Assembly: GCA_041177245.1 (NCBI GenBank)
Contig: JBEDBL010000003.1
Coordinates: 1 to 35,236, forward strand
Direction: 5' to 3'
DNA from: Verrucomicrobiota bacterium
Lineage (GTDB): Bacteria; Verrucomicrobiota; Verrucomicrobiia; Chthoniobacterales; JACTMZ01
Length of the DNA: 35,236 nt
Translations under genes and position numbers: made by a program
In this document: positions 7,461-29,970 of the stretch, piece by piece
How positions within the stretch are numbered: position 1 is the stretch's first letter
Layout of the letters: the number at the start of each line of letters is the position of its first letter
Notes under the pieces: generated by a model
What the model was told of the DNA's origin: nothing
What the model saw: only the letters and a program-made list of their open reading frames with translations
Database searches by the model: none

Positions 7461-8374
7461 GGTTCTTTGGATGCGATGACGAGTTGCGCGTCGGCCCGGA
7501 ATTGGCCGTGGGAAAGCGATTCGACGACGGTCTTCACCGCCAGCGTGACCAGTGCGAGCAGGGCGAGCAGCGCGGCGAAGGCGAAAGCGGCGGTGAACTG
7601 GTATTCGTTGTAAAGAATCTCGATGTGCAAGGGCACAGTGTTCGTCTGGCCGCGGATGTGGCCGGAAACGACGGAGACCGCGCCGAATTCCCCCATGCTG
7701 CGCGCGTTGCAGAGGATGATCCCGTAGATCAGCGCCCATTTCACGCGAGGCAGTGTGACGCGCCAGAAGGTGCGCCATCCGTTGGCTCCCAGCGTGGCTG
7801 CCGCGTATTCCTCGTCATTCCCCTGCGCCTGCATGAGCGGGATCAATTCGCGCGCTACGAAAGGAAAGGTGACAAACACCGTGGCCAGCACGATCCCGGG
7901 CAAGGCGAAGATGATTTTGATGTCATGCTCCATGAGCCACGGACCGAACCACCCCTGACGTCCGCAAAGCAGCACGTAGACGAGTCCCGCGACAACCGGT
8001 GAAACGGCAAAGGGAAGATCGATCAGCGTGATTAGCAGGCTCTTGCCGCGGAAATCGAATTTTGTCACCGCCCATGCGGCGGCCAGACCGAAGATCGTGT
8101 TGAGGGGCACGGCGATGGCCGCGACGATGAGGGTGAGTTTGATCGCATGCCAACCCGCCGGATCCTCGAACGATGCGATGAAGAGTTGCCATCCTTTCTC
8201 CAATGCGCCGTGGAAGACGGCGACGAGCGGGATGAAAAGAAAGAGCACCAGAAATCCGAGCCCGAGGCCGCCGATGATGAGTTTTGCGATCCACGGTTCG
8301 GGCAGCACGCGGTTCTGCGGCGCGACCGATTCGTAGCTGCGCCGCACGGTGCGCAATGGCGTCGCCGCACCCAT
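7457..8374 (-). CDS. cysW: Sulfate ABC transporter permease
   Basis: [57 protein letters not shown]. Confidence 0.94.
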
Positions 8375-9201
8375 CAGAGCACACCTCCCGAGCTACGCCG
8401 TGCGGCCCACCACTGTAGCGAGTTGATGCCGAGCAGCAGGACAAACGATACAACCAGCATGACCACGGCAAGTGCCGTGGCCCCCGCGTAATCGTATTGC
8501 TCGAGCTTGATCACGATGAGCAGCGGCGTGATTTCGCTGATCATGGGCATATTGCCGGCGATGAATATGACCGAGCCGTATTCGCCGATGGCACGGGCGA
8601 AAGCCATGGCCACTCCGGTGAGGATGGATGGAAAGAGCACGGGAAAGACCACGCGGTGGACAGTCTGCCACCAAGTCGCACCGAGGCTGGCCGCCGCTTC
8701 TTCGAGTTCGCGCTCCGCCTGCTCGAGCACCGGTTGCACCGTGCGCACGACGAAAGGTAATCCGATGAAAACCAACGCGACAAAAATGCCGGCGGGAGTG
8801 AAAGCAACGCGGATGCCGAGCTCGCCGAACCAACGCCCGATCCAACCTTCCGGCGCATAAAGCGTGGCCAGCGCGATTCCCGCTACTGCCGTGGGTAGCG
8901 CGAATGGCAAGTCGACCATCGAATCGACCAGTTTTTTTCCGGGAAACTCGTAACGAACGAGCATCCACGCCACAACCACCCCGAAGATCCCATTTACCAG
9001 CGCGGCGAGGAGGGACAGGCCGAAGGTGACACGATACGACGCCAGCGCGCGCGGCGAAGTGGCCACTTCCCAGAACTCGGCCGGACCGAGAGAGAACGCT
9101 TTGAAAAATGTCGCGGAAAGCGGTAGCAGCACGATCAACCCCAAGTAGAGCAGCGTGAAACCGAGAGTGAGCCCGAAACCGGGAAGGACGCGACGGCTCA
9201 T
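8374..9201 (-). CDS. cysT: Sulfate ABC transporter permease
   Basis: [63 protein letters not shown]. Confidence 0.94.
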
Positions 9202-15039: not shown

Positions 15040-16122
15040 TTACGGCTCGAAATCAACCCACTTGACCAAAGAAGCGAGCCGCGGGATGCCGCCGTTGTGC
15101 CAAGTCCAATGCGGATCCTGCATGCTTCCGATGGGGCAAAACCTCGATGGACGCAACGCGGCGAAGCGGTCGGCGAGGTCCTCGGTGCAGGGACAAAGCC
15201 CGACCGCGCCGATATGCGCGGCGGCCGGACCGATCGAGTTGACGAAATCTTCGGGTAACGGTTTGACGAAAATGACGCGATTGAGCGGCGAGGCGGGAAA
15301 CCAAGAGTCCTCTTCGTAGACGACGGTCCAATCGAGATTCGCTCCGCCCTCCCACAGCGCGACGCGCAAATCGCCGGCCGCACGGAAGCGGTAAGCGGCG
15401 CGCAGATTGGCGATCTCCGCTTTTTCCGCCACGTTGAGCGGACCGCGTGCATGCGAGCGGTTGAAGCGCTCCATGGACGACGCCAGTTTTTCAGCATATT
15501 CGCGGGCGAAACCCGGTTGTATCTCCCGCACATAAAAAACCTGCGGCGAAAGACACCCTTGCTGGTCGTAGAGCGAGGCATCGCGCGCTGCCCCGTCGCA
15601 TGATGCGAACGCCGGGTCATCCCACACGATGCCCAAGCTGGCCCTGTGTCCGTGGCCGACAAAGACCTGCGAGGGTGACACCAACCCACGGAAATGCGCG
15701 ATGGTTTCGTCCGATCCGTAGACGATCACCGCTTCGGCTTGCGCCAACCAAGCAGAAGGCAAATCTTCCGCGGTTTCGACGGTGCTGCGCATGGCGTCGG
15801 GCAAGCCGGCGAGAAATTCATCCACCTCGATGATGCCGCCACGCGGGAGTTTGACCAGATTGCGGCTGCCGAGGAGGAGCCCGCCGATCAACGATTGCAG
15901 CGCGGCATGCGGCGTGTTGCCGCTGACCACATGCAGGATGGTCGCCGGTGCGACCGCTTTGGTCTTGGATTTTCCGTGGTCGACCCACCGATCGAGCGCA
16001 TCGGCGTTACCTAATTCGGACCGGACCCAAGCGAGTAAATCTTCCGGTGCGGTCGGGCCGAGCAGCGCGCGGAACGGCTCCGCAGCTTCGGCGACGGCGC
16101 TGGCGCGGCCGGACGTGTTCAT
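15040..16122 (-). CDS. LuxC-like acyl-CoA reductase
   Basis: [32 protein letters not shown], catalytic-type [33 protein letters not shown] at 16122 is coupled to the upstream stop (ATGA). Confidence 0.82.
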
Positions 16123-17126
16123 CGCAGCCATTCGTCCGCAGCGCGAGAGCATCCGCGGGGCAGGGCCGAGGGATCGCGCCCGAGCAACTGGAAAGCCTCG
16201 CCGCCTTTGACCGCGAGATCCTGCGTCCTGATGCCGACCACCGATCCGACATTGGCCGCATCATAGATCAGAAGTATTCCCGTTTCGCCGTCGGCGACTT
16301 CCCGCAGCGTGACCGGATCGGCGACCACGGCGCGCGCCCAAGGTGGACCGTGGTGCAAGCCTTGCGGCCCGCGCGCGTAGAATTGCGAACTCAGCTCGGT
16401 CATGCCGTATTCATTGTAGATGTCATCCGGCGATATGCCGAGCCTGTCTCCGAACATGTCGTAAAGATCCCCGCGCGAAACATTGCGCCCGCTGCCTTTG
16501 TATCCGCCGGTTTCCATGGCGGTCGAACCGCCGGGCAACGTCAGCGTGAGATGACTTGTTTCCATCCGCTCGAACAAATTGAGAAATCCGAGTGCTGTGC
16601 CGAGCAAGCAGACCGGTTGATCGATGGACTTCAATCGTTCGATATCGATGACCCCGGCGGCAGCGATGAAGTTGTCGCGCGGCGCGAGGGTGCCGAGCAT
16701 GTGGCTTAGCGAGGAATGAGGGGATTCGTCGGGATGGGGTGCGATGACGAGGAACGGTCCGGCCGGCATATTCGCCCGACGCCACCCCTCCCGCACGACG
16801 GCTTCGTAAATTTCCAGCGTGCGGAAATGATGCTGTCCGAATCCCTCGCCGGTCGTCCCGCTGGTGCGGAAAGTTTTGACGGTATCATCGGCCGAAAAGC
16901 TGCGCAGGTCGGCATGCTTGAAGGCCGACTGCGGAACACAGGGCACATCTCGCCAGAGATCCGGTGTCTCCCCGACGCCCGATTGGCCGCAAAAAAGTCG
17001 GTAAGCGGAGTTGTTGCGGTATTGGAACGCGTGCAACCGGAGAACAGTTTCAGCGAAGTCCGCCGGGCGGTTCCCCTCGATCCACGCGAGAACCTGTGCC
17101 TCCAGATCGACGGCGGAATGTGACAT
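16119..17126 (-). CDS. LuxE-like acyl-protein synthetase (ANL-type)
   Basis: FQYRNN..YR, FRTSGTTG, METGGYKG, NEYGMTELSSQFY, TQDL, LLGR, C-terminal PRGCS (LuxE acylated-Cys motif). Likely start is ATG at 17126. Confidence 0.85.
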   Translation of the reverse strand: MSHSAVDLEAQVLAWIEGNRPADFAETVLRLHAFQYRNNSAYRLFCGQSGVGETPDLWRDVPCVPQSAFKHADLRSFSADDTVKTFRTSGTTGEGFGQHHFRTLEIYEAVVREGWRRANMPAGPFLVIAPHPDESPHSSLSHMLGTLAPRDNFIAAAGVIDIERLKSIDQPVCLLGTALGFLNLFERMETSHLTLTLPGGSTAMETGGYKGSGRNVSRGDLYDMFGDRLGISPDDIYNEYGMTELSSQFYARGPQGLHHGPPWARAVVADPVTLREVADGETGILLIYDAANVGSVVGIRTQDLAVKGGEAFQLLGRDPSALPRGCSRAADEWLR

Positions 17127-17209
17127 GGCGCTATCCTGCCATTCCCAGACGGCCGGCAAACCTCATTTTCTCCTCGCGCCCGCGGCGCGGTGCGGCAAAT
17201 CCTTGGATT

Positions 17210-20035
17210 GTGCGTTTCTGCGCGGTCATTTTTTGTCTCTCCATCGCGGTCCTGACCCCGGGCCTGCGTGCCGCCGGAGAACCCGCGGCCCCGGCAGCCG
17301 AGGCCGGCACGGCGCGCGACATCATTTTCCGCGCCGACACGGCCTACAACAACAAGCGCTACGAGGAAGCAACGGCCGGATACCGCAGGTTTCTCCAAGA
17401 CTTCGGAGCATCCTCGGAGGCTTTGCCATTTCTTCCGCATGTCCGCTACAACCTCGCGGCTTCACTGATGCAGTCGCAGAAATACGAGGATGCGCTCGAG
17501 GCGATCGAAGATGCCGGAAAAATCAAGGACATCGGTGCAAAGGAGAAGGAAGACCTCGCATTCTGGAGGGCCATTGCGCTCATGCAGACCGAAAGCTACG
17601 AGGAGGCGACGAAAGCATTGTCCGAATTCCGGGACGCTTTCCCTAAATCGGGACGCCGTCGGGACTCGGAGCTGCTTACAGGGAGTTCTCTGCTTGCCGG
17701 AGGAAAGCTCGAGGAAGCGGCAAAGGTTTTCAACGACATCCGCAAACTCCACGGGCATCCGCACGCCGGCCGCGCCACCGTGCTCGAGTTGCATTGCCTC
17801 ATCGAAACCGGAAAGGACAATGAGGCTTTGGCCTTGCTCGCCGAAGTCGGGCCGGAAATGGATTCGAAAATCAGCCAGCTTGCCACATTCCAGACCTTGG
17901 CTTTGTCGCTCGGCGGAAAATTGCTCGACGAGGACCGGCCTCGCGATGCCATCAGGGCACTGCAGAACATCTGGCCGCGCGAGCGTCTCTTGGCGCATCA
18001 AAAGCACAAGCTAGAAGAGGTTAAAACGAATCTCGCAAACATCGAGCGTCTCCCGAAACCGGACGTTTTCGCGCGCGCGCAGCAGAAGCAGTTGTTGCGC
18101 GAGGTGGAGAAAGAGCTGGCCAATCTGGAAAAAATCCCTTCCTTCGACGCATCGGTCCGTTTCCGTCTGGCCACCGCTTTCCACCGTCAGGACCGCTATC
18201 GCGAATGCGCCATGTTGCTCGACGATATGCTCCGCCAGATGGAACCAAACGATGTCGTCGAAAAAGCATCGCTAAGCGCGCTGCAAAGCTGGATGGCTAT
18301 CGAGCGCTATGACAAGGCCATCGAGGCCTCGACGGTTTTTGAAGAGCATTTCCCGTCATCGAAAAGCCTGCCACTGGTGCTTTACCTGCGCGGAACTGCC
18401 CAGCAGAAATCCGACAAATACGAAGATGCCATTGCGACATTCTCGGCCCTGCGCGAGAAATTTGGCGATTCCGAGCAGGCCCCGCGCGCCTTTTTCATGA
18501 CGGGCTTCACGCAGTTGTTGGCCGAACGCAACGAAGACGCCGCGGAGACATTCCGGCAATTCCAGGAAAAATATCCCCAGCACGATCTCTCCGAAGCCGC
18601 CAACTACTGGCGGGGGTCGGCTTTTGCTTTTGCCAAAAAATTTCCCGAGGCCCGAGAGGTTTTGGGTGCGCACGCTGCAAAGTTTTCCGAGGGGACTCTG
18701 GGTGCCTCCGCCATGTTCCGCCGGGCCTACTGCGCCCAGTCGATGAAGGATTACGCGCAGGCCGAGACCGAGCTCAGGGAGTTTCTGGGAAAATTTCCCG
18801 AGGCGGAAGAGAGCGCCGAGGCCCGCCTCATGCTCGGCGATGCGCTACTCGCTCAGGGCAAATCCGACGAGGGCAAACAGATCTACGCCTCGGTCCCCGC
18901 GGGCGCGGGACACCGGCACGAAGAGGCGCAGTTCAAGATCGCAAAAGTGCTCAAGCTTGAAGAGGACTTCGACGGCCTGAGGGCGCTCATGCGGAAATAC
19001 CTCGATCTCTATCCACAGAGCCCCATGGCGGCCGAGGCGCTCTATCACATGGGACAGTCTTGGCGCCAGCAGGAGCAGCCCGATAAAGCGGCGGCGGAAT
19101 ATTGGAAGGCCATCGGGCAATTCGGCAACGACCCGGATGCTGACTCCGTCGAGCAACTCTTCCTTGCCCTCGGGAAATATTACAAAAGCGAGTCGGAGCG
19201 GAACGATTATCTCGCCCGACTCCGCAGCTTGCGCGACGGGGCAACCGGCAAGGGCGAAAAGGTGCTTGTCGTGCGGGCTATTTGGGCCTTGGCGCAAGCT
19301 GTCAAAAAATCGGACCCGCCATTGAGTTCCGCCCTCCTCCGAGAGGCTTCCGCTTTGCTCAAGCCGGAGGAGACGAGCCCTTTGATTATCGCCGACTGCG
19401 CCGAGGCGTTGCTGTCATCGTCCGCAGACAACACCAACCCCGGAGATTCCGCGGAGCGCCGGGCCAAAGCCGCGCAACTTTACCGTGACTTGCTCAAGTG
19501 GCACCCTCGTGCCGCGCAGAAAGACAAAGCTCTTGCTGCGTTGGCCAAAGTTTCGCTCGGGGCGGGCGAGAAGGAAGTTGCGCTGGACTACTACAGACGT
19601 CTTGAGCAGGACACGCCATGGTCGCCGCTTGTCGGAGACGCTCTCATGACCCGCGCGGGCATCGAATTGGAGGCCGGACACAGCGAGCAAGCTGCGGATG
19701 CCTACAACCGTCTGCTCGCCGCAAACAGCGTGCAGGGCAAGCTCAAGGCGCAGGCTCTCCTGGCTCTCGGTGACATCGCGATGAGCAGGAACGAACCGAA
19801 ACTGGCCGTTCCATACTACCAGCGGATCTATATCCTTTACGGCAAGTGGCGGGAGACAGTCGCGCAGGCTTACCTGCGCAGCGGCGAGGCTTTCGAGCAA
19901 CTCAATGACACCGAGGCTGCGCGCAAAACGTACGAGGAACTGGCCAACAGCGAGGATTTGGGCTCCTTGCCGCAGGCGCAGACCGCGCGCGAGAAACTCA
20001 AAAAATTCACCCCCAAGGAACAGGCGCCGTCGTGA
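17210..20035 (+). CDS. Large secreted tetratricopeptide-repeat protein (BamD/CpoB-like TPR arrays)
   Basis: GTG at 17210 gives the signal peptide MRFCAVIFCLSIAVLTPGLRA, followed by many TPR units ending F/YP.S (e.g. EEHFPSS, EKYPQH, DLYPQSP). The ORF-track start at 16964 overlaps luxE and is unlikely. Confidence 0.85.
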   Translation: MRFCAVIFCLSIAVLTPGLRAAGEPAAPAAEAGTARDIIFRADTAYNNKRYEEATAGYRRFLQDFGASSEALPFLPHVRYNLAASLMQSQKYEDALEAIEDAGKIKDIGAKEKEDLAFWRAIALMQTESYEEATKALSEFRDAFPKSGRRRDSELLTGSSLLAGGKLEEAAKVFNDIRKLHGHPHAGRATVLELHCLIETGKDNEALALLAEVGPEMDSKISQLATFQTLALSLGGKLLDEDRPRDAIRALQNIWPRERLLAHQKHKLEEVKTNLANIERLPKPDVFARAQQKQLLREVEKELANLEKIPSFDASVRFRLATAFHRQDRYRECAMLLDDMLRQMEPNDVVEKASLSALQSWMAIERYDKAIEASTVFEEHFPSSKSLPLVLYLRGTAQQKSDKYEDAIATFSALREKFGDSEQAPRAFFMTGFTQLLAERNEDAAETFRQFQEKYPQHDLSEAANYWRGSAFAFAKKFPEAREVLGAHAAKFSEGTLGASAMFRRAYCAQSMKDYAQAETELREFLGKFPEAEESAEARLMLGDALLAQGKSDEGKQIYASVPAGAGHRHEEAQFKIAKVLKLEEDFDGLRALMRKYLDLYPQSPMAAEALYHMGQSWRQQEQPDKAAAEYWKAIGQFGNDPDADSVEQLFLALGKYYKSESERNDYLARLRSLRDGATGKGEKVLVVRAIWALAQAVKKSDPPLSSALLREASALLKPEETSPLIIADCAEALLSSSADNTNPGDSAERRAKAAQLYRDLLKWHPRAAQKDKALAALAKVSLGAGEKEVALDYYRRLEQDTPWSPLVGDALMTRAGIELEAGHSEQAADAYNRLLAANSVQGKLKAQALLALGDIAMSRNEPKLAVPYYQRIYILYGKWRETVAQAYLRSGEAFEQLNDTEAARKTYEELANSEDLGSLPQAQTAREKLKKFTPKEQAPS

Positions 20036-20940
20036 AAAAGACTTTCCCGCTGTTTTTCCTCGCCGCGACTGTTTGCGCGCAGGACGTCATCCATTACACG
20101 GACGGCACCATGCGGACCAACAAGATTGCCGCGGCGGAAGGAGCGATGCTCCGCATCGTCATTCCTTCGCCCGTGCCCGGCCAACCCGGAGGCTCGACGC
20201 TGATCCCGCGAGCGGGCATATCGAAAATTATTTTCGGACCCGATGCGGTGCTCGATGCCGTTGCCGCGCAACCGCTGCCCGGTTCGGTCGCGTCCTCCCG
20301 CTCCCGCTGGCAGAGTCTCCAGCCCTTGCTGGGCACGCCCGAATCTCGCGCCGCTGAAGCGGGATGTCTGCTCGGGGAGATACTTCTGCAAGCGGAGGAT
20401 CCCGCCAAGCATGAGGAGGCCATGGCAATTTTCACGGAAGTCGAAAAAGGTGCTTGGAAGCTCGAGGATCGCCAGCGCGCCGCGCGAGGCCGGCTCGGCG
20501 TCATGATCAAGCAAGGAAAACTCGACGAGGCGTCCCAACAAGCGGAGGAAATGGAACGAACGGCTGCCGATCCTGAACTTGTCATCGACACAAGATTGTT
20601 GCTCGCTCGTGCGAGATCGGAGGAACTCAAAAAACTCCTCAAAGATAATCCTCGGTGGAGCGAAGATCCGCCGGTGATCATGGGACGAGCACGGCTTCTG
20701 AACGAGGGTTTGGATTATGCCCTTTATCCCTTCCTTTTTTACGGGACAAAGCACCGGCAGGCCGCGCAGGGACTCTGGACGGCGCATGAGCTGTACGCTG
20801 CCTGCGACGAGGACGAACGCGCCCGTGAAACTTTGCAAGATATCGTGGAAATCTATCCCGATACCTCTTTTGCGGCGGATGCGAAAGCCGCCTTGGCCGA
20901 GACGCCCGGCAAGCAAAGCAAGGTCCAAGCCGATGAATAA
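20032..20940 (+). CDS. Secreted protein with small N-terminal beta domain and C-terminal TPR-like helices
   Basis: GTGA overlap with the upstream gene, signal peptide ending VCA, QDVIHYTDG start, helical repeats, and C-terminal ARETLQDIVEIYPDTSFA. Confidence 0.75.
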   Translation: MKKTFPLFFLAATVCAQDVIHYTDGTMRTNKIAAAEGAMLRIVIPSPVPGQPGGSTLIPRAGISKIIFGPDAVLDAVAAQPLPGSVASSRSRWQSLQPLLGTPESRAAEAGCLLGEILLQAEDPAKHEEAMAIFTEVEKGAWKLEDRQRAARGRLGVMIKQGKLDEASQQAEEMERTAADPELVIDTRLLLARARSEELKKLLKDNPRWSEDPPVIMGRARLLNEGLDYALYPFLFYGTKHRQAAQGLWTAHELYAACDEDERARETLQDIVEIYPDTSFAADAKAALAETPGKQSKVQADE

Positions 20941-20986
20941 GGACCCCATGCACCTTGTTGCCGGTGCTTCCAGCTTTGCCGTGCCA

Positions 20987-21002
20987 CGCGCGATATCGCG
21001 CG
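20987..21002. repeat. Perfect 16-bp palindrome in the intergenic region before exbB
   Basis: cgcgcgatatcgcgcg is its own reverse complement. Confidence 0.6.
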
Positions 21003-21075
21003 AATTTCTTCCCGCGGCCCGACTTGGCAGGCTTGCGGTTGTCTGTTAGCGAAAAACATATCCACTGCAGCACCT

Positions 21076-21915
21076 ATGAACATCCTCACCACCAAACCCC
21101 GTCCTTCGGACAAAATCCCGAGCTTTGGAAAAGGCATCCTTCCACTCCTGCTCGCCGCGTTTGCTTTCGCGTTCGTTTTCAGCCCCTGCAACGCGAGCGC
21201 CATGGGCGTGGCATCAGACAAGAGCCTCCTGGATCTCTACAAAGAGGGAGGGCCCATCATGCACCTGATCGCGCTTTGCTCCGTGGCGGTCAGTTCGCTC
21301 GGTTGCTACTGCTTCCTTATGTTCCGCAAAGCAAAAATGATGCCCCCCGATCTCGTTGCCGAGTTGGACGGTTTGATGACGCAGCGCGATTTGCAGACGG
21401 CTTACCAGGTCTGCAAGGCCAAGCCATGCGTTCTCACCACCATCCTTTCGGGTGCGTTGACCAAGGCCAATTTCGAGCGGGACATGTTCAACAAGACCTC
21501 GATGGAGAACTCGGTCGCCGACGACTGTTTCCGCGAGGAGAGCAAAATGATGGTGGTGGTGAACTACCTCAACACCTTTGCCGTGCTGGCGCCTATGATC
21601 GGATTGCTCGGCACGGTGAGCGGCATGATCACGAGCTTCAGCGCGCTGACGGCAGGCAAAGCGGAGGCCACCGACCTGGCCAAGGGCATCGGAGAGGCAC
21701 TCATCGCGACAGGCGGCGGTCTGCTTCTGGCGATCCCAGCGATGTTTCTCTATTTCTTCTTCCGTGGTTTGTTGACTTCGAACATGGCGGACATCCACAA
21801 GGCTCTATCGCACATGCTCGACCTCTTCACGGGCGAGGCGCACGGGAATCCGCCTTCCGCCGCGCAACCCGAGGTTTACGCGGCCGAAGATTACCAGGAG
21901 CCTGCTACCGAGTAA
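21076..21915 (+). CDS. exbB: MotA/TolQ/ExbB proton-channel protein
   Basis: EGGPIM first TM entry, LAPMIGLLGTVSGMI, LAKGIGEALIATGGGL, AIPA; N-terminal signal-like extension. Confidence 0.9.
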   Translation: MNILTTKPRPSDKIPSFGKGILPLLLAAFAFAFVFSPCNASAMGVASDKSLLDLYKEGGPIMHLIALCSVAVSSLGCYCFLMFRKAKMMPPDLVAELDGLMTQRDLQTAYQVCKAKPCVLTTILSGALTKANFERDMFNKTSMENSVADDCFREESKMMVVVNYLNTFAVLAPMIGLLGTVSGMITSFSALTAGKAEATDLAKGIGEALIATGGGLLLAIPAMFLYFFFRGLLTSNMADIHKALSHMLDLFTGEAHGNPPSAAQPEVYAAEDYQEPATE

Positions 21916-21921
21916 GACAAG

Positions 21922-22344
21922 ATGTCCGAAGGACGCCGCCGCATTCGCCGGGTAGCACACGAGGAGGTGGGTTTGCAGATTGCACCCATGATCGACGTTA
22001 CCCTGTTGCTCCTCTTTTTCTTCATGTTGGCGGGCAAAATTACCAAAGCGGAGAAGATGATGGACATCAAAGTCCCCGTGGCGGCCACCGGGAAAATACC
22101 GGAAGATGAAGGAAACCGCGACATCGTCAACATCGACAGCCAAGGGCAGTTGTTCAGCGGCAGCAAGCCAATGACAACCAAAGAACTCTCCGTGCACCTC
22201 AAGCAGAGATTCAAAGATTATCCGCCGCTCAAACTCTACGTGCGCGCGGACGCCGGGACTCCCGGCAAAAGAATCAAAGAAATCATGGCCATGGCCAGCG
22301 AGGCCGGTGCGATCGAAGTCATCTTCGGGGTGATACAAAAATGA
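21922..22344 (+). CDS. exbD: ExbD/TolR family protein 1
   Basis: IAPMIDVTLLLLFFFM with the conserved TM Asp; periplasmic VRAD motif. Confidence 0.9.
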   Translation: MSEGRRRIRRVAHEEVGLQIAPMIDVTLLLLFFFMLAGKITKAEKMMDIKVPVAATGKIPEDEGNRDIVNIDSQGQLFSGSKPMTTKELSVHLKQRFKDYPPLKLYVRADAGTPGKRIKEIMAMASEAGAIEVIFGVIQK

Positions 22345-22781
22345 GGCGTATCGAGCATCCCCAGATCGAGTTGCAGATTGCCCCGATGATCGACGTCTGC
22401 TTCCTGCTGCTCTTTTTCTACATTCTCACTTCAAAGCCGGTGAAACCGGAGGCGGATGTCTCCATGACCTTGCCCGGAACCGTGGCGCAAGAGCAGTCGC
22501 TCGACATTCCCGATGAGCAAAGGGTCGCCATCCAAGACAACGGGCAGATTGTCCTCAATGACCTTCCGCTCGACAAAGCCGACAGCAAAGATCTTCCGGC
22601 TCTGCTCGCCACCCTGAAGCGGTTCAAAGAGTCGACCGACGCCAACAAAAGCCAGGCTCTGGTCACCGTCGATGTCGCCGACCGTGCGGTGCACCAGCGT
22701 GTGATTGACGTCCTCAATGCCTGCGCCCAGGCCGGCATACAGGGAGTCACTTTTGCCGGTCCATCGGGAGAAGAAGAATGA
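22341..22781 (+). CDS. exbD: ExbD/TolR family protein 2
   Basis: IAPMIDVCFLLLFFYI with the conserved TM Asp; VIDVLNAC..AGI; ATGA overlap with the previous gene. Confidence 0.9.
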   Translation: MRRIEHPQIELQIAPMIDVCFLLLFFYILTSKPVKPEADVSMTLPGTVAQEQSLDIPDEQRVAIQDNGQIVLNDLPLDKADSKDLPALLATLKRFKESTDANKSQALVTVDVADRAVHQRVIDVLNACAQAGIQGVTFAGPSGEEE

Positions 22782-23884
22782 CAACTTCGCTCGAGGAAAC
22801 ACCGCCCGCGCAGAAAAGCCGCCTGAGGAGGATCATCATCATGGTGATACTCGCGAGCATCGCCATCCATATCGTGGCAGGCATCGTGGCCGGGGTGGTC
22901 ATTGTTGCGCGCTACTTCGCGGAGCCGCCCGCGGAGTTCAAGGCGGTCAAAGATATCAGGATACCCGCGCAGGATCGGGAGCACCGCATGAACATGGCGG
23001 CATACGAGGGGGGAGCTGCCAAACCCGCTTTCACCGATAAAATGGCGTCCACAAGGCCGACGGATTTTGCGCTCCCTGACATTCCGCAAATGCCGATGGA
23101 TGCGGTGACAGAGTTTGACCCGAACGGGGTCGTGGCCGATCAAATCGCCGGTATCGGGAGCGGGTCGGGAATGGGATCGGGGTTCGGATCTGGCACTGGA
23201 GGCGGCGGTAAGGGAGGTTCCGCGGTCAACTTCTTCGGCATTTCCGACACGGCCACGCGAGTTGTTATCGTGGTTGACGTATCGGACACGATGTTCGACC
23301 GGCAACCGGGAAAATTTGATGCGGTCAGGCAGGAGGCGATGAAACTGGTGAAAGGACTGGGGATCAACACCCTGTTCGATTTGATCATCTACGAGGGCGG
23401 ATCAGTCGCCATGTTTCCCGAAGTGCAGCCGGCCACGGAGGCAAATAAGCAGAAAGCAGTGGAATGGATCCAAAAAGTGGACGGAGGTGGCGACAAGCGC
23501 GGCGCTTCCTACCGCGGCACCTACAGCAAAATGGGCACCGGTCTCTACGAGGGCGGCGGCACGCGCACCGACACGGCTCTCAAGCAGGCGCTTTTGCTGC
23601 GCCCGAGCACGATATTTCTGATCACCGACGGCGAGATGAGCCGCTTGGGTGGAGCGGCAGGAGCTCAAGATGAAAAAGACGGCGAAAGGCAAGGTTCCGG
23701 AATCAGCGAAGAGGAACTCCTGGATATTGTCGAAGAGGGACAAAAGAAGCTCGAGGAACCGGCTCGTATCCACGTGGTTCACTTTCTCACCAAGGCGGCG
23801 CGTTCGGAGGAGGAGAAAGTTTTGAGGACGATCGCGCGCCGTAATGACGGACGCTTCAAGCAGGTCAAGGCTGAGGATTACTGA
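22778..23884 (+). CDS. Single-pass membrane protein with TonB/TolA-like anchor, Pro/Gly linker and C-terminal vWA domain
   Basis: TM helix with S27-I-A-I-H31, Pro-containing then Gly/Ser-rich linker, vWA motifs VVIVVDVSDTM, GGTRTDTAL and IFLITDG; ATGA overlap. Confidence 0.8.
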   Translation: MTTSLEETPPAQKSRLRRIIIMVILASIAIHIVAGIVAGVVIVARYFAEPPAEFKAVKDIRIPAQDREHRMNMAAYEGGAAKPAFTDKMASTRPTDFALPDIPQMPMDAVTEFDPNGVVADQIAGIGSGSGMGSGFGSGTGGGGKGGSAVNFFGISDTATRVVIVVDVSDTMFDRQPGKFDAVRQEAMKLVKGLGINTLFDLIIYEGGSVAMFPEVQPATEANKQKAVEWIQKVDGGGDKRGASYRGTYSKMGTGLYEGGGTRTDTALKQALLLRPSTIFLITDGEMSRLGGAAGAQDEKDGERQGSGISEEELLDIVEEGQKKLEEPARIHVVHFLTKAARSEEEKVLRTIARRNDGRFKQVKAEDY

Positions 23885-23943
23885 CGCCGTCCCTCGGAAC
23901 TTACTGCTCGCCGATCGGGCTTCCGGGGCCTAGAAATTCGCCA

Positions 23944-24666
23944 ATGGTGGAAATCTTGGAGAAACTTCTCCTCCTGCAGGAGCGCGACCAGAAATTGCAG
24001 GCGTTTCTCCACGAGATCAACGGGGTGCCTGGCGAAAAAGCCTCCCTGCAGAAAGAGCTGGATGCCGCGCAGCGCACTCTGGAGAACGACAAGGCCCGCG
24101 CCACGCAGATCGAAGTGGAGCGCAAGCGGCTTGAAGTCGAGGCCGACGGCAAGCGCGCGCAGATCGCGAAATACCAGACCCAGCAGCTGGAAACGCGCAA
24201 GAACGAGGAATATTCCGCTTTGAAACACGAGATCGAGCGGGCCGAAAAAGACATCACAGCCATCGAGGACCGCGAACTCGAACTCATGCAGGAGCTCGAA
24301 GATCTCAAGCCGCTCATCGCGGCGGCCGACCAGAAATACAGCTCCGAGAAAAGCCGCGTGGCCGTGCTGATGAAAACCGCCGACGAAAAAGTCGGCGTGT
24401 TGCAGGGCCGGGCCGACGAGCTGAAAGTGGAACGCGACGCCGTCGCCGCGGAAGTCCGGGCGGGGGACGAGGATCTGTTCGAACTCTACGAAAAGCTTTT
24501 CCGCTCAAAAGCCGGTCGCGCCATTGTCCCTCTCGAGGGCAACCATTGCTCGGGTTGCCACATGACGGTGACACCCGCGACCCTGCGTGATGCCAAAGTC
24601 GGCTCCAGCGTCGTCTCCTGCGAGCAGTGCGGACGGATCGTCTACGTGCTGCCGGAGTATGCTTAG
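23944..24666 (+). CDS. Coiled-coil protein with C4-type zinc ribbon (DUF164 / CT398 / HP0958-like)
   Basis: Long coiled coil with NEEYSALKHEI, ending in CSGCH...CEQCGRIVY. Confidence 0.85.
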   Translation: MVEILEKLLLLQERDQKLQAFLHEINGVPGEKASLQKELDAAQRTLENDKARATQIEVERKRLEVEADGKRAQIAKYQTQQLETRKNEEYSALKHEIERAEKDITAIEDRELELMQELEDLKPLIAAADQKYSSEKSRVAVLMKTADEKVGVLQGRADELKVERDAVAAEVRAGDEDLFELYEKLFRSKAGRAIVPLEGNHCSGCHMTVTPATLRDAKVGSSVVSCEQCGRIVYVLPEYA

Positions 24667-24669
24667 AAA

Positions 24670-26547
24670 TTAGTGCCCGTTGGAGCCGTTTGCACCGGCA
24701 CCTCGCGGCTCGAATTCCTCGCGGAACTTCCCGACGAAACTCTGCGTCGGCCAAGAGCAGGCCTCCCCGAAGGCGCACACCGTCCGCCCGGCGATGTTGT
24801 CCGCAATGCCAACGAGTTGCTTGGCGTCGGTCGGTTTTATGTCGCCGTGGAGCATGCGCGTGGTCACTTTGGACATCCACAAACTGCCTTCGCGGCAAGG
24901 TGTGCATTGGCCGCAGCTTTCGTGCGCGTAGAAATCGTTGATGTTGTTGAGAACCCAGAGCATGTCGCGCGAATCGTCGAGGATCATGACACCGGCGCTG
25001 CCGATCATGGATCCCGCCAGGGCGAGCGAGTTGGCGTCCATGACGACGTCCATCAAACCGACCTCGACCGTTGTCTCGGCGCCGTCGGGCCCTTTACGCT
25101 TCATTTTGAATGTTTCGCCGGCGCGCAAAACTTTCGCCGAACTTCCGCCGGGGATGATCGCTTTGAGTTTGCGTCCCGGCTTCATCCCGCCGCAAAGGTC
25201 GATCAACTGGCCGACTGTGACCTGTCCGCATCCCAGTTCGTAGAAATCGGGGTTCTGCACGTCGCCGCTGATGCAAAGCGTGCGCGTGCCACCGTCTCCC
25301 GGCGAACCGAGTTTGGCGAATTCGGCGCCGCCCATGGCGATGATGTGTTTCACGTGGCAGAGGGTTTCCACGTTGTTGACGATGGTCGGACAGTTGTAGA
25401 GGCCGAATACCGCGGGGAAATAAGGCGGCTTGATGCGGGGGTAGGGACGTTTGCCTTCGAGCGATTCGAGCAGGCTCGTCTCCTCGCCGCAAATATAGGC
25501 GCCTGCGCCCTGGTGCACATAGATGTCGCAATCGAAGCCGGAGCCGAGGACGTTTTTGCCGATGAGTCCGCGCTCGCGTGCTTCGGCGATGGCCTTGGTG
25601 ACGATGCGTGCTGCTTCGGGGAATTCGCACCGGATGTAGATGTAGCTGAGGTGCACATTGAGCGCCCAGGCGGCGATCATCATGCCTTCGAGCAACTGGT
25701 GCGGGTCCTCGTGCAGGATGTAGCGGTCTTTGAAAGTGCCCGGCTCCGACTCGTCGCCGTTGACTACGAGATAATGCGGCTTTCCGTCCTCGCGTTTGAT
25801 GAAACTCCACTTCACGCCGCATGGGAATCCGGCGCCGCCGCGGCCGCGCAAGTTCGAGGCTTTAACTTCGGCCACGATGTCGTCCGGCTTCATCTGCAGC
25901 GCCTTTTTCAGAGACTCGTATCCGCCGTGGCGCACGTAGCAATCGATCGAGGTATCGTAGTCCTCGCGCCCGACGTTCCGGAGGATCAGCCTCCGTTCCG
26001 AGGAATGCGGCGCGCGGACCGTTTTACGGTAGCCTGTATCACGCCCGAGCAACGATGCCGCGTCGTCCGGTGCGATGCGTTCATGGAGATCGTCGCCGAC
26101 CATGGCCACGGGCGCGCTGCCGCAGCTGGCCAGACACTCGACGAATTCGATGGTGCAGCTTCCGTCTGAAGCGGTGAACTCGTGCGCGTGGTCGTCGTGT
26201 CCGCCGTTCCCGCCAGCCGCGCGGCAAAGGTTTTTGTGCAGCTCGTAGGACCCCGCCATGGCGCAGGAGAGCGTGCGGCAGACGCGGATGACTTTTTTTC
26301 CGGGGGGCGTCTGGCGGAACCACGGATAGAAGGTGACCAGCTCGAGGATGTTGATCGGCTCGAGCTCGAGACGCCGCGCGATCCAGTCGACGCCGCTGTC
26401 GTCCACGTAGCCGAAATGGTTCTGCCAGAGGTGGAGCAGGGGGAGGGAGGCGCTTCTTTTGGAGACGGGATAGTGGGTGACCGCCTCGTCGATGGCGGCC
26501 AGAAGCCCTTGTGGCAGGTTGTCGGCTTGGCGGGACGCGTTGGTCAT
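24670..26547 (-). CDS. nuoF: Fused NADH-quinone oxidoreductase subunits E and F (NuoE-NuoF)
   Basis: NuoE part: SASLPLLH, VTFY, CRTLSC, CLASC. NuoF part: LRGRGGAGF, NGDESEPGTFKD, GAGAYICGEETSLLESLEG, CGQCTPCREG, VCAFG. One continuous frame; likely start is ATG at 26547. Confidence 0.92.
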   Translation of the reverse strand: MTNASRQADNLPQGLLAAIDEAVTHYPVSKRSASLPLLHLWQNHFGYVDDSGVDWIARRLELEPINILELVTFYPWFRQTPPGKKVIRVCRTLSCAMAGSYELHKNLCRAAGGNGGHDDHAHEFTASDGSCTIEFVECLASCGSAPVAMVGDDLHERIAPDDAASLLGRDTGYRKTVRAPHSSERRLILRNVGREDYDTSIDCYVRHGGYESLKKALQMKPDDIVAEVKASNLRGRGGAGFPCGVKWSFIKREDGKPHYLVVNGDESEPGTFKDRYILHEDPHQLLEGMMIAAWALNVHLSYIYIRCEFPEAARIVTKAIAEARERGLIGKNVLGSGFDCDIYVHQGAGAYICGEETSLLESLEGKRPYPRIKPPYFPAVFGLYNCPTIVNNVETLCHVKHIIAMGGAEFAKLGSPGDGGTRTLCISGDVQNPDFYELGCGQVTVGQLIDLCGGMKPGRKLKAIIPGGSSAKVLRAGETFKMKRKGPDGAETTVEVGLMDVVMDANSLALAGSMIGSAGVMILDDSRDMLWVLNNINDFYAHESCGQCTPCREGSLWMSKVTTRMLHGDIKPTDAKQLVGIADNIAGRTVCAFGEACSWPTQSFVGKFREEFEPRGAGANGSNGH

Positions 26548-27737: not shown

Positions 27738-28868
27738 GTGTCTGCCGTCCCCGAACATTCTGCCGTCGAAGTCGTCGAGGATCACTCTTCCGCCGTCCAT
27801 GCCCTCCACCATGTGGATCAATACCTTGCCATCGGCAAGGAGTCGGGCGCTTCGGATATCCATCTGACCGTGAACCTGCGGCCCACTTGGCGCCGCTTCG
27901 GAACGCTTGAACCCATCTGGTTGCAGGCGGACAAACTCAGTGCGGCGGATACCGAGAGGCTCGCCATGGGTTTCCTCGATGACGCGCAGAAAAAACTCCT
28001 GGAGGAGCGGGGCGATGTCGATTTTGCATACACCAACTCCGAGGGTCGATACCGCACGAGCGTGGTGCGTCATCGCCTCGGCTACGATCTTGTTTTCCGC
28101 ATCATCCAGACCAATGTCCGCACGATGGATGATCTCGGTCTGCCGCCCCAACTGAAGCTTCTCACGCAATACCAGAACGGCTTGGTGCTGGTCACCGGTT
28201 CGGTCGGAAGCGGCAAAAGCACGACTTTGGCCTCGTTGGTGGAGGAAGTGAACCGGACGCGTCACGAACACATCATCACTCTCGAAGACCCCATCGAGTA
28301 TCTCTTCACCCCGCAGGGCTGCCAGGTGAACCAGCGCGAGGTGCACACGCACACCGAGTCGTTCGGCGCGGCGCTGCGCGGGGCTTTGCGCGAAGACCCG
28401 GATGTCATCATGGTGGGCGAAATGCGCGACCTCGAGACGATCTCGCTGGCCATCACGGCGTCGGAGACGGGCCACCTTGTGCTCGGCACGCTGCACACGG
28501 CGAACGCCGCCCGAACGCTCGACCGTTTGCTCGACGTGTTTCCGGTCGACCAACGAGAGCAGATTCGCATCATGGTGAGCGAATCTTTGCGCGGAATCAT
28601 CTCGCAGCAACTTGTCCCGCGAGCCGACGGAATGGGTCGCGCTCTGGCCATCGAAATCCTCGTGAATACCCCGGCCGTGGCGAACGTTATCCGCGAGGCG
28701 AAGACTTTCATGTTGCCGGGTATCATCCAGACCGGGAAGAAAATGGGAATGAAGCTGATGGATGATTCGTTAGCCGAACTTTTTGGAGCAGGTCTCATTT
28801 CCGGAGACGAGGCCGTCGCGCGCGCCGAACAAAAACCCGCCATGAAACAACTTTGCGGGGTCGCCTGA
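27738..28868 (+). CDS. pilT: PilT/PilU family type IV pilus ATPase 1
   Basis: ASDIHL, GSVGSGKST, EDPIE, ALREDPDVIMVGEMRD, GTLHT, AVANVIRE. Confidence 0.88.
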   Translation: MSAVPEHSAVEVVEDHSSAVHALHHVDQYLAIGKESGASDIHLTVNLRPTWRRFGTLEPIWLQADKLSAADTERLAMGFLDDAQKKLLEERGDVDFAYTNSEGRYRTSVVRHRLGYDLVFRIIQTNVRTMDDLGLPPQLKLLTQYQNGLVLVTGSVGSGKSTTLASLVEEVNRTRHEHIITLEDPIEYLFTPQGCQVNQREVHTHTESFGAALRGALREDPDVIMVGEMRDLETISLAITASETGHLVLGTLHTANAARTLDRLLDVFPVDQREQIRIMVSESLRGIISQQLVPRADGMGRALAIEILVNTPAVANVIREAKTFMLPGIIQTGKKMGMKLMDDSLAELFGAGLISGDEAVARAEQKPAMKQLCGVA

Positions 28869-28872
28869 TCCC

Positions 28873-29970
28873 ATGTCTCGAATCGACCAACTTTTCGAGG
28901 TTTTGATCAACGCGCGCGCGTCCGATCTTCACTTGGCCGAGGGGCAGCCTCCGAAGATTCGCCGGCACGGCGATGTGATCGCCATCCGTGAGGAATTGCT
29001 GACTGCGGACGAGATGAATTACATGCTCAGCGAGATCTGCACGCCGAAAAACTGGGAACGATTCCAGGCCAAGGGTGACCTCGATTTCGCCTACGAGATG
29101 AACGAGGACAGCCGCTTCCGCTGCAACTACTTCAAGCAGGTGCACGGGCTTGGCGCGGTCTTCCGTCTGATCCCGACGCGCATCGCCACGATCGACGAAC
29201 TTGGTCTTCCGCCGGTCATCAAGGAATTCGGTCACCTGCGCGGCGGGCTTGTTCTTGTCACCGGTCCGACGGGATCGGGCAAAAGTACTTCGCTGGCCGC
29301 GCTCATCGACTATATCAACAGCAATTTTTCGCGCCACATCGTGACGATCGAGGAACCGATCGAGTTCGTGCACTCGAACAAAAACAGCATCATCACCCAG
29401 CGCGAGGTTCCGGAGCATTCCACGACCTTTCCCGCCGGGCTGAAAGCCGCGCTCCGCGAGGACAGCGACATCGTGCTCGTCGGCGAGATGCGCGATCTGG
29501 AAACCATCTCGCTGGCGCTGACCGCCGCCGAAACCGGTTTGCTCGTGTTCGGAACGTTGCACACGAACAACGCGCGCAAAACAGTCGACCGTATGATCGA
29601 TGTGTTTCCTTCCGACCAGCAGGCGCAGGTTCGCACCATGCTCGCAGCCTCGCTGCGCGGGGTGGTCGCGCAGCTCCTCCTCAAGCGGCATGACGGCGGC
29701 GGCCGCATAGCGGTGAATGAAATCCTCGTGGTCAACAGCGCGGTGGCGGCGATCATCCGCGAAGGTGCCACGCAAAAACTGCAGGATGCAATCGTGGGTG
29801 GAAAGTCTCAGGGTATGCAGTTCATGGACGATGCGATTTGGGCCCAGCTTCAGCAGGGCCGCGTCTCGCCCCACGAGGCTTTCATGAAGGCCATCGACAA
29901 GAGCCGCTTCAAGGCCTTCCTGCCGGAGGAGGAAGCGCAGTTGGCCAATTCGGCCGGGGCTGCCGCGTAG
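28873..29970 (+). CDS. pilT: PilT/PilU family type IV pilus ATPase 2
   Basis: ASDLHL, RFRCNYF, GPTGSGKST, EEPIE, ALREDSDIVLVGEMRD, GTLHT, AVAAIIRE. Confidence 0.9.
   Translation: MSRIDQLFEVLINARASDLHLAEGQPPKIRRHGDVIAIREELLTADEMNYMLSEICTPKNWERFQAKGDLDFAYEMNEDSRFRCNYFKQVHGLGAVFRLIPTRIATIDELGLPPVIKEFGHLRGGLVLVTGPTGSGKSTSLAALIDYINSNFSRHIVTIEEPIEFVHSNKNSIITQREVPEHSTTFPAGLKAALREDSDIVLVGEMRDLETISLALTAAETGLLVFGTLHTNNARKTVDRMIDVFPSDQQAQVRTMLAASLRGVVAQLLLKRHDGGGRIAVNEILVVNSAVAAIIREGATQKLQDAIVGGKSQGMQFMDDAIWAQLQQGRVSPHEAFMKAIDKSRFKAFLPEEEAQLANSAGAAA

Follow-up and report, generated by a model that had tools for sequence, protein, structure and literature searches.

Gene organization of the locus

The window, i.e. 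the whole stretch of DNA analysed (35,236 nucleotides of contig JBEDBL010000003.1), derives from a freshwater Chthoniobacterales bacterium of the Verrucomicrobiota, the genome of which is 86% complete. It contains an operon of six genes on the same strand, in the order TPR-TPR-ExbB-ExbD-ExbD-vWA (TPR, tetratricopeptide repeat; vWA, von Willebrand factor A), the last of which encodes the protein considered here, P0001. P0001 combines an N-terminal transmembrane (TM) helix carrying an SxxxH motif, a long linker, and a C-terminal vWA domain with the residues of a metal ion-dependent adhesion site (MIDAS). It is probably a TonB/TolA-like periplasmic arm working on an ExbB/ExbD motor, with the MIDAS-bearing vWA head gripping a partner in the cell envelope. 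The genes of the operon are:

16964 to 20035, + strand: large TPR protein, first gene of the cluster, 1023-residue open reading frame (ORF); Pfam TPR_6, TPR_16 and YfiO
20032 to 20940, + strand: 302-residue protein with a signal-peptide-like N terminus, its start overlapping the stop of the TPR gene by 4 bases
21076 to 21915, + strand: ExbB/TolQ/MotA-family motor subunit, 279 residues; PF01618, 84.6 bits
21922 to 22344, + strand: ExbD/TolR paralogue 1 (ExbD1), 140 residues, TM motif PMIDV; PF02472, 73.2 bits
22341 to 22781, + strand: ExbD/TolR paralogue 2 (ExbD2), 146 residues, TM motif PMIDV; PF02472, 64 bits
22778 to 23884, + strand: vWA protein P0001, 368 residues, inner-membrane-anchored; open ORF

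The initial annotation placed the vWA gene in the position that tonB or tolA usually takes after exbD/tolR, and this is borne out, in that it follows two ExbD genes with ATGA start/stop overlaps at both the ExbD1/ExbD2 and the ExbD2/vWA junctions. These overlaps couple translation of the vWA gene to that of ExbD2, and translation of ExbD2 to that of ExbD1. The TM aspartates of the two ExbD paralogues, D25 in ExbD1 and D18 in ExbD2, are each invariant in 15/15 orthologues. Among 17 Chthoniobacterales loci, 16 have all six genes in this order; the remaining one is a 1.2-kb contig that holds only ExbD2 and the vWA gene. The same order is also found in a metagenome-assembled genome (MAG) of the Victivallales (locus L081).

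The large TPR protein has CpoB/YbgF-like repeats (TIGR02795, 201 bits, seven stretches). Its true start probably lies further downstream, near a signal-peptide-like stretch; as given above, the ORF (16964-20035, +) overlaps a 346-residue ORF on the minus strand (16119-17159) by approximately 200 bases. The 302-residue protein has no Pfam match and a weak YbgF-like match at its C terminus (E 5.5e-4). Promoter and terminator scans across 16500-24800 gave counts equal to those expected from shuffled sequence. Metatranscriptome X20 yielded two short contigs, one within ExbB (21209-21398) and one across the ExbB/ExbD1 junction (21788-21959), which may represent DNA carry-over; no real RNA was seen over the vWA gene in X20, and a second RNA run, X21, gave no contigs.

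The membrane anchor and linker of P0001

The N-terminal part of P0001 comprises three features:

22832 to 22918, + strand: TM helix, approximately residues 19-47, hydrophobic, the only hydrophobic helix of P0001
22856 to 22870, + strand: S27-x3-H31 motif, with codons AGC at 22856-22858 (S27) and CAT at 22868-22870 (H31)
22919 to 23218, + strand: periplasmic linker, residues 48-147, separating the helix from the first vWA strand

The description of this region in the initial annotation, as a single TM helix with S27-x-x-x-H31 followed by a Pro-containing, Gly-rich spacer, is accurate: the AGC and CAT codons fall within the hydrophobic stretch, prolines are present at nine linker positions (50, 51, 63, 83, 94, 100, 103, 106, and 115), and a Gly-rich run extends from residue 126 to 147. 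In an AlphaFold2 (AF2) model a long helix spans residues 10-47, with predicted local distance difference test (pLDDT) scores of 84-97. S27 and H31 are invariant in 26/26 orthologues, of 57-85% identity, while the residues between them (28-30) vary.

The source genome has six MotA/ExbB loci and three TonB_C matches. Two full-length TonB_C proteins adjoin ExbB genes of their own, on contigs C33 and C29, an ExbD gene being confirmed only at C33. Both carry S-x3-H (as VSLLAH) in their TM helices; thus, the P0001 motif is the one used by the organism's own TonBs.

Only 18 residues precede the helix, and four positively charged residues among them (K13, R15, R17, and R18) lie ahead of the hydrophobic stretch. 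Along with the presence of cytoplasmic-type (SAM and kinase) domains N-terminal of the helix in relatives, described below, these charges support the predicted topology, with the N terminus inside and the vWA head outside.

The linker is modelled with lower scores (pLDDT 42-81, falling below 50 at residues 127-143) and includes two short helices, residues 66-79 and 115-127. Close to the membrane it contains a block of residues that are invariant in the 26-orthologue alignment (F54, I60, R61, H69, R70, M71, and N72); one of them, F54, is also at least 90% conserved across 63 aligned sequences.

The vWA domain and its putative metal site

The C-terminal part of P0001 contains the following features:

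23219 to 23881, + strand: vWA domain, residues 148-368, assigned by profile against PDB sequences and Foldseek against the PDB
23276 to 23290, + strand: MIDAS motif D167-V-S169-D-T171, aligning with the ITIH4/ITIH1 DxSGS block
23561 to 23563, + strand: putative MIDAS threonine T262 in a GGGT motif, a role suggested by the motif and by its position within the fold
23627 to 23629, + strand: MIDAS aspartate D284 in a TDGE motif, aligning with the ITIH4/ITIH1 TDGD block

The domain is weakly recognized from the single sequence, which scores below the Pfam cut-offs (VWA_3, 24.1 bits against 27; VWA, 20.4 bits against 23.8) and gives no phmmer match to PDB sequences at E <= 0.01. In the PDB, a profile of the 63 aligned sequences finds the vWA domains of ITIH4 (E 9.7e-13) and ITIH1 (E 6.4e-10). 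The AF2 model, built with the same 63-sequence alignment (mean pLDDT 80.9), scores 81-98 in most 10-residue blocks of the vWA stretch, an insert at approximately residues 290-310 scoring 51-64. Searched against the PDB with Foldseek, the model gives a best E of 4.7e-10 and 215 matches at E <= 0.001, including ITIH4, ITIH1, BatB, and many other vWA structures; among the matches listed, all are vWA-domain structures. On this evidence the C-terminal domain is a vWA fold.

The vWA fold with MIDAS-like residues reported in the initial annotation is supported by the family profile, by Foldseek, and by the alignment of the family's DvSdS and sDGe blocks with ITIH4 and ITIH1. The annotation had also named conservation of the SxxxH and MIDAS residues in orthologues as a check, and this holds: like S27 and H31, residues D167, S169, T262, and D284 are invariant in 26/26 orthologues, and position 171 is always Thr or Ser. 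D167, S169, and D284 are further invariant in 63/63 aligned sequences. By sequence, P0001 has the complete MIDAS set (D167, S169, T171, T262, and D284), a putative metal site.

Breadth of the family and relatives with swapped or added domains

Among 1.84 billion representative proteins, the P0001 family numbers 1405 at a threshold of E <= 1e-3, falling to 308 when E <= 1e-10 is required. A TM-like segment with a histidine is present in 120 of the best 150 distant representatives; four positions before that histidine, 90 have Ser, 8 have Thr, 8 have Val, 7 have Ala, and 7 have some other residue. Approximately 15 of the 30 representatives lacking a TM histidine are N-terminally truncated fragments.

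Some relatives retain the SxxxH helix and the juxtamembrane block but carry PA14, a domain of carbohydrate-binding type, in place of the vWA domain (P0178, P0180, P0191, P0214, P0243, and P0246). At the one PA14 locus examined (L129, 6001-7227), motor and TPR genes are both absent to a distance of 6 kb. The MAG that carries this locus also has a linked vWA copy (L067).

Other relatives have domains added at the N-terminal side of the helix. A SAM (sterile alpha motif) domain precedes the SxxxH helix and vWA domain in P0182, P0185, and P0194; P0198, the helix of which has A-x3-H, has an N-terminal Ser/Thr kinase domain, and P0217 has both kinase and SAM domains. The kinase-TM(AxxxH)-vWA fusion is approximately 800-840 residues long and is encoded in full at three loci from three Verrucomicrobiota MAGs (L079, 5983-14354; L080; L082). 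In 3/3 of these, the fused gene lies directly upstream of a cluster encoding a TPR protein (~950 residues), a protein of unknown type (~400 residues), ExbB, and one or two ExbD subunits, i.e. ExbB-ExbD(-ExbD).

The existence of these forms raises the question of whether P0001 is a signalling receptor, in which a TM-linker-head protein senses a ligand in the envelope or at the surface through its MIDAS and signals across the membrane, with the motor and TPR proteins setting or reading its state. The attachment of kinase (P0198, P0217) or SAM (P0182, P0185, P0194) domains to the same helix and block, and the position of the three full-length kinase fusions upstream of a TPR-motor cluster, favour such a role. 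It is nonetheless unlikely for P0001, which, with so short a segment before its helix, has no cytoplasmic output domain, and in the operon of which there is no response regulator or kinase gene; moreover, the kinase-fused forms are still tied to motor genes, and signalling may be an addition to motor coupling. A further reading, which we regard as rather improbable, is that the SxxxH helix and juxtamembrane block form a portable motor-coupled arm that evolution has fitted with varied heads (vWA/MIDAS or PA14) and, in some lineages, with a cytoplasmic Ser/Thr kinase or SAM domain, the TPR-motor-arm assembly being a proton-powered mechanosensor. The motor would tug, by way of the head, on a ligand in the envelope or at the surface, and the load would be reported to the cytoplasm. 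To our knowledge, mechanosensor architecture of this kind has not been described for 5:2 motors.

A second motor cluster is present in the source genome (L029:4307-9659, equivalent to contig C4:21043-26395). Its order is a TPR protein (766 residues), ExbB (L029:6635-7543), a probable ExbD (7553-8044), a further ExbD (8085-8504), and P0272; PF02472 is confirmed only for the ExbD at 8085-8504. P0272 has 368 residues, with a TM helix near its N terminus, an extended (Thr-Pro)n linker, and, at its C terminus, a domain that has no Pfam match; it lacks SxxxH. Its features resemble those of a further TonB-like arm, with an unassigned head. P0272 was rejected as a paralogue of P0001, since the family profile finds one copy of the P0001 family in the genome and P0272 is without a Pfam match.

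Linkage and co-occurrence across the phylum

A profile scan of a phylum sample of 401 genomes found the vWA family in 122/401 genomes and 73/185 genera, with up to five copies per genome. At the 29 best loci, considered with 1.5 kb on either side, ExbD genes are directly upstream of the vWA gene in eight and downstream in one. Of 15 further loci, one has the full order, one (L077) has TPR-TPR-ExbD2-vWA, one (L071) has TPR-TPR-vWA, and one has ExbD2-vWA at a contig edge; in two, ExbB-ExbD lie 2.4-3.2 kb upstream of the vWA gene; at L078 a contig edge leaves only a C-terminal fragment; and the other eight lack motor and TPR genes within reach.

Association with the motor was also assessed at the level of whole genomes. 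An ExbD2-type paralogue was defined by a match to an ExbD2-family profile (A5) at E <= 1e-25, which picks one of the six motor loci of the source genome; that this threshold was set after the cognate and non-cognate scores had been seen is a point against the motor-coupled reading. The paralogue so defined is present in 121/401 genomes. The vWA family and the ExbD2-type paralogue are found together in 113 genomes, the vWA family only in 9, the ExbD2-type paralogue only in 8, and neither in 271, counts for which a Fisher p-value overstates the case, related genomes not being independent. The co-occurrence holds where the genes are on different contigs or megabases apart, e.g. in genomes G249 and G309.

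TonB_C, used as a control, is present in 317/401 genomes. Family by family, it is found in 35/35 genomes of f10 versus 6/35 for the vWA family, in 31/31 of f11 versus 3/31, in 5/5 of f13 versus 0/5, and in 17/18 of f29 versus 0/18. TonB_C is hence common also where the vWA family is rare or absent, and the vWA-ExbD2 association is therefore specific. Most genomes with the vWA family, including the source genome, also have TonB_C proteins; the vWA system coexists with TonB and is not a replacement for it.

The TPR-vWA link may be tighter than the motor-vWA link. In a MAG labelled Chthoniobacterales the order is TPR-TPR-vWA, with no motor genes between (L071:2478-7705), and in a MAG labelled Spartobacteria it is TPR-TPR-ExbD2-vWA (L077:2377-7615). 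Arrangements in which TPR genes adjoin the vWA gene with no intervening motor gene, or only ExbD2, would suit a static tether or assembly subunit that anchors the TPR scaffold or the motor, much as stators are anchored by peptidoglycan-binding domains, the SxxxH helix then serving assembly and not cyclic delivery of force; vWA domains are common as stable protein-protein adaptors. We consider this unlikely for P0001, because both ExbD paralogues keep their TM aspartate, which fits a functional proton-driven motor in need of an output, and the operon encodes no other candidate for that output.

Comparison with a published class and with known systems

The initial annotation proposed P0001 as a possible new energy transducer. 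The transducer part of that proposal is the best-supported reading, resting on the SxxxH helix, the operon, co-occurrence with ExbD, and the predicted N-in/C-out topology. The novelty does not stand: a class of vWA force transducers sharing this operon layout had already appeared in print in June 2025 (section 8 of PMC12204202; Mol Biol Evol 2025;42(6):msaf138). As described in that paper, its members have an inner-membrane tether with an SHLS-type helix ('many' members having SHLS), a disordered region containing a motor box, domain II of approximately 100 residues, and a C-terminal vWA domain; AlphaFold 3 models of relatives put the TM histidine where TonB and TolA bind the motor (PMC12204202). 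The function guessed at there is surface adhesion or gliding (PMC12204202). No further paper on the class was found in the literature from 2023.

P0001 resembles this class in its single Ser/His TM helix, disordered linker, domain II of approximately 100 residues, C-terminal vWA domain, and operon layout; its likeness to the Tichowtungia-type class is judged by architecture together with operon layout. There are differences from the same account, in that the P0001 operon has two TPR-region genes compared with one in the published layout, and in that the P0001 genome has TonB_C proteins, whereas the class was found while examining species without discernible TonB or TolA (PMC12204202). In that paper, MIDAS, metal, PA14, kinase, and Chthoniobacter have zero occurrences. 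New here are the co-occurrence of the vWA family with the ExbD2-type paralogue in the 401-genome sample, the relatives with swapped or added domains, and the sharing of SxxxH with the organism's TonBs. The P0001 locus is a clean, strongly conserved example of the class, to which the present work adds evidence, from comparison of genomes, that the presence of one ExbD paralogue follows that of the vWA family even in the absence of gene linkage. If coupling to ExbB/ExbD-type motors is correct, proton-driven periplasmic force transduction would not be limited to TonB and TolA, metal-dependent adhesion-type heads would also be used, and an unexplored envelope function would exist in Verrucomicrobiota and other phyla. 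The presence of relatives in cultured Cerasicoccus strains, such as C. arenae KCTC 12870, C. frondis NBRC 105381, and C. maritimus NBRC 105382, makes the class testable at the bench.

P0001 is like TonB in having one TM helix, with its N terminus inside and carrying S-x3-H, in having a long periplasmic linker that contains prolines, and in being encoded after exbD. Unlike TonB, it has no TonB_C domain (no PF03544 match), its head is a vWA/MIDAS domain, and its motor has two different ExbD subunits. With such a head, one would not expect pairing of β-strands with a TonB box. The system shares the same anchor logic with TolA and has CpoB-like TPR proteins in its cluster (TIGR02795); by contrast with TolA, there is no TolA C-terminal domain on P0001 in either Pfam or NCBIfam. 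TolB_N has no match in the source genome (86% complete), and the sole OmpA/Pal-like match is on another contig; the system may conceivably stand in for Tol-Pal.

With respect to the head, the vWA domains of ITIH1 and ITIH4 (PDB 6fpy and 9c4f) are the closest solved ones by both profile and fold, with the DxSxS and TDG blocks aligning; they differ in belonging to secreted eukaryotic proteins, and identity is only 12-19%. A functional link between a TolQR-type motor and a vWA/MIDAS adhesin, CglB, is described for Myxococcus Agl-Glt gliding (PMC9946355, cited in PMC12204202). According to its abstract, CglB is an outer-membrane lipoprotein (PMC9946355), as opposed to the inner-membrane, SxxxH-anchored arm proposed for P0001.

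Proposed mechanism and points weighing against it

In the mechanism that we propose, the N-terminal helix of P0001 would lie in the inner membrane with its N terminus inside, and Ser27 and His31 would be on the face by which TonB and TolA dock on the rim of the ExbB/TolQ pentamer. The motor would comprise ExbB and an ExbD1/ExbD2 heterodimer, as encoded just upstream. The conserved juxtamembrane block (residues 53-72) may be a 'motor box' that touches the periplasmic domains of ExbD1/ExbD2, while the rest of the linker, of approximately 100 residues, would be flexible, Pro/Gly-rich, and long enough to span the periplasm. At its far end, the MIDAS of the vWA head would grip an acidic side chain of an envelope partner via a divalent cation. 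The likeliest partner may be either of the secreted TPR proteins encoded in the operon, or a component that they recruit, and proton flow through the motor would result in pulling or remodelling of that partner. Delivery of force through a MIDAS clamp and not by β-strand pairing, as put forward in the initial annotation, would be compatible with the invariant MIDAS residues; it does not feature in PMC12204202. With regard to function, we lean towards an envelope-maintenance, Tol-like role, which the CpoB-like character of the TPR proteins would favour.

Aside from the two points on the co-occurrence counts given above, several observations weigh against a motor-coupled arm. With respect to linkage, 20 of the 29 best loci have no ExbD gene within 1.5 kb in a hidden Markov model search; in 16 of these 20, Pfam analysis revealed housekeeping-type or uncharacterized neighbours, with no MotA_ExbB and no ExbD, and locus L027 is likewise unlinked to motor genes. 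With respect to the anchor, Ser27 and His31 are less than 90% conserved in the 63-sequence alignment. Gln or Asn replaces the expected histidine in at least nine of the distant representatives (Gln in P0133, P0150, P0166, P0186, P0205, P0216, and P0221; Asn in P0207 and P0242), and a few helices have none of these residues. It should be added that His20 of TonB is replaceable by Asn. The leucine and serine of a full SHLS motif, which by TonB spacing (His+7 and His+11) we take to correspond to A38 and V42, are not evident in P0001. In the linker, the AF2 monomer has no β-strand and the juxtamembrane block scores a pLDDT of 65-81, so that the motor box is only putative. The putative MIDAS threonine T262 is also less than 90% conserved among the 63 sequences, and a subgroup of distant relatives lacks it. 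The relatives fused to kinase or SAM domains are explained by a signalling role no less well than by a pulling one. Finally, the published class is one of computational prediction, and PMC12204202 states that no deletion phenotypes have been reported.

In the distant relatives, most of those with a Gln- or Asn-bearing helix are also without the GGGT threonine of the MIDAS.

The unlinked loci could also be taken to imply that P0001 is a membrane vWA protein of the BatA/BatB kind with no connection to the motor, its adjacency to motor genes being local to the order and the Ser/His pair serving, for example, in oligomerization. BatA/BatB proteins, like P0001, are membrane-anchored bacterial vWA proteins and are good structural matches, BatB (PDB 3ibs) and the aerotolerance-related membrane protein of B. 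fragilis (PDB 4jdu) being among the best. P0001 differs from them in having no match to the Bat N-terminal family, no MoxR- or DUF58-type operon partners, and an SxxxH anchor. Furthermore, the co-occurrence with the ExbD2-type paralogue (113/9/8/271) holds even where the genes are unlinked, and the motor-TPR-vWA neighbourhood recurs, rearranged, in distant lineages, which together make a Bat-like protein very unlikely; the motor-coupled, TonB/TolA-like arm remains the preferred reading.

Other genes in the window

Directly downstream of the vWA gene (23944-24666, +) is a gene for a CdsZ/CT398-like protein with a coiled coil and a C4 zinc ribbon (PF24481, PF02591), which also matches NF047363 with 96.9 bits, below the cut-off. 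A gene of this type is downstream of the vWA gene in 14 of the 17 Chthoniobacterales loci, in six of which an insertion of approximately 1.2 kb precedes it. Further along, two tandem ORFs (27738-28868 and 28873-29970, +) have by eye the look of PilT-type twitching-motility ATPases, with a Walker-A motif, GSGKST.

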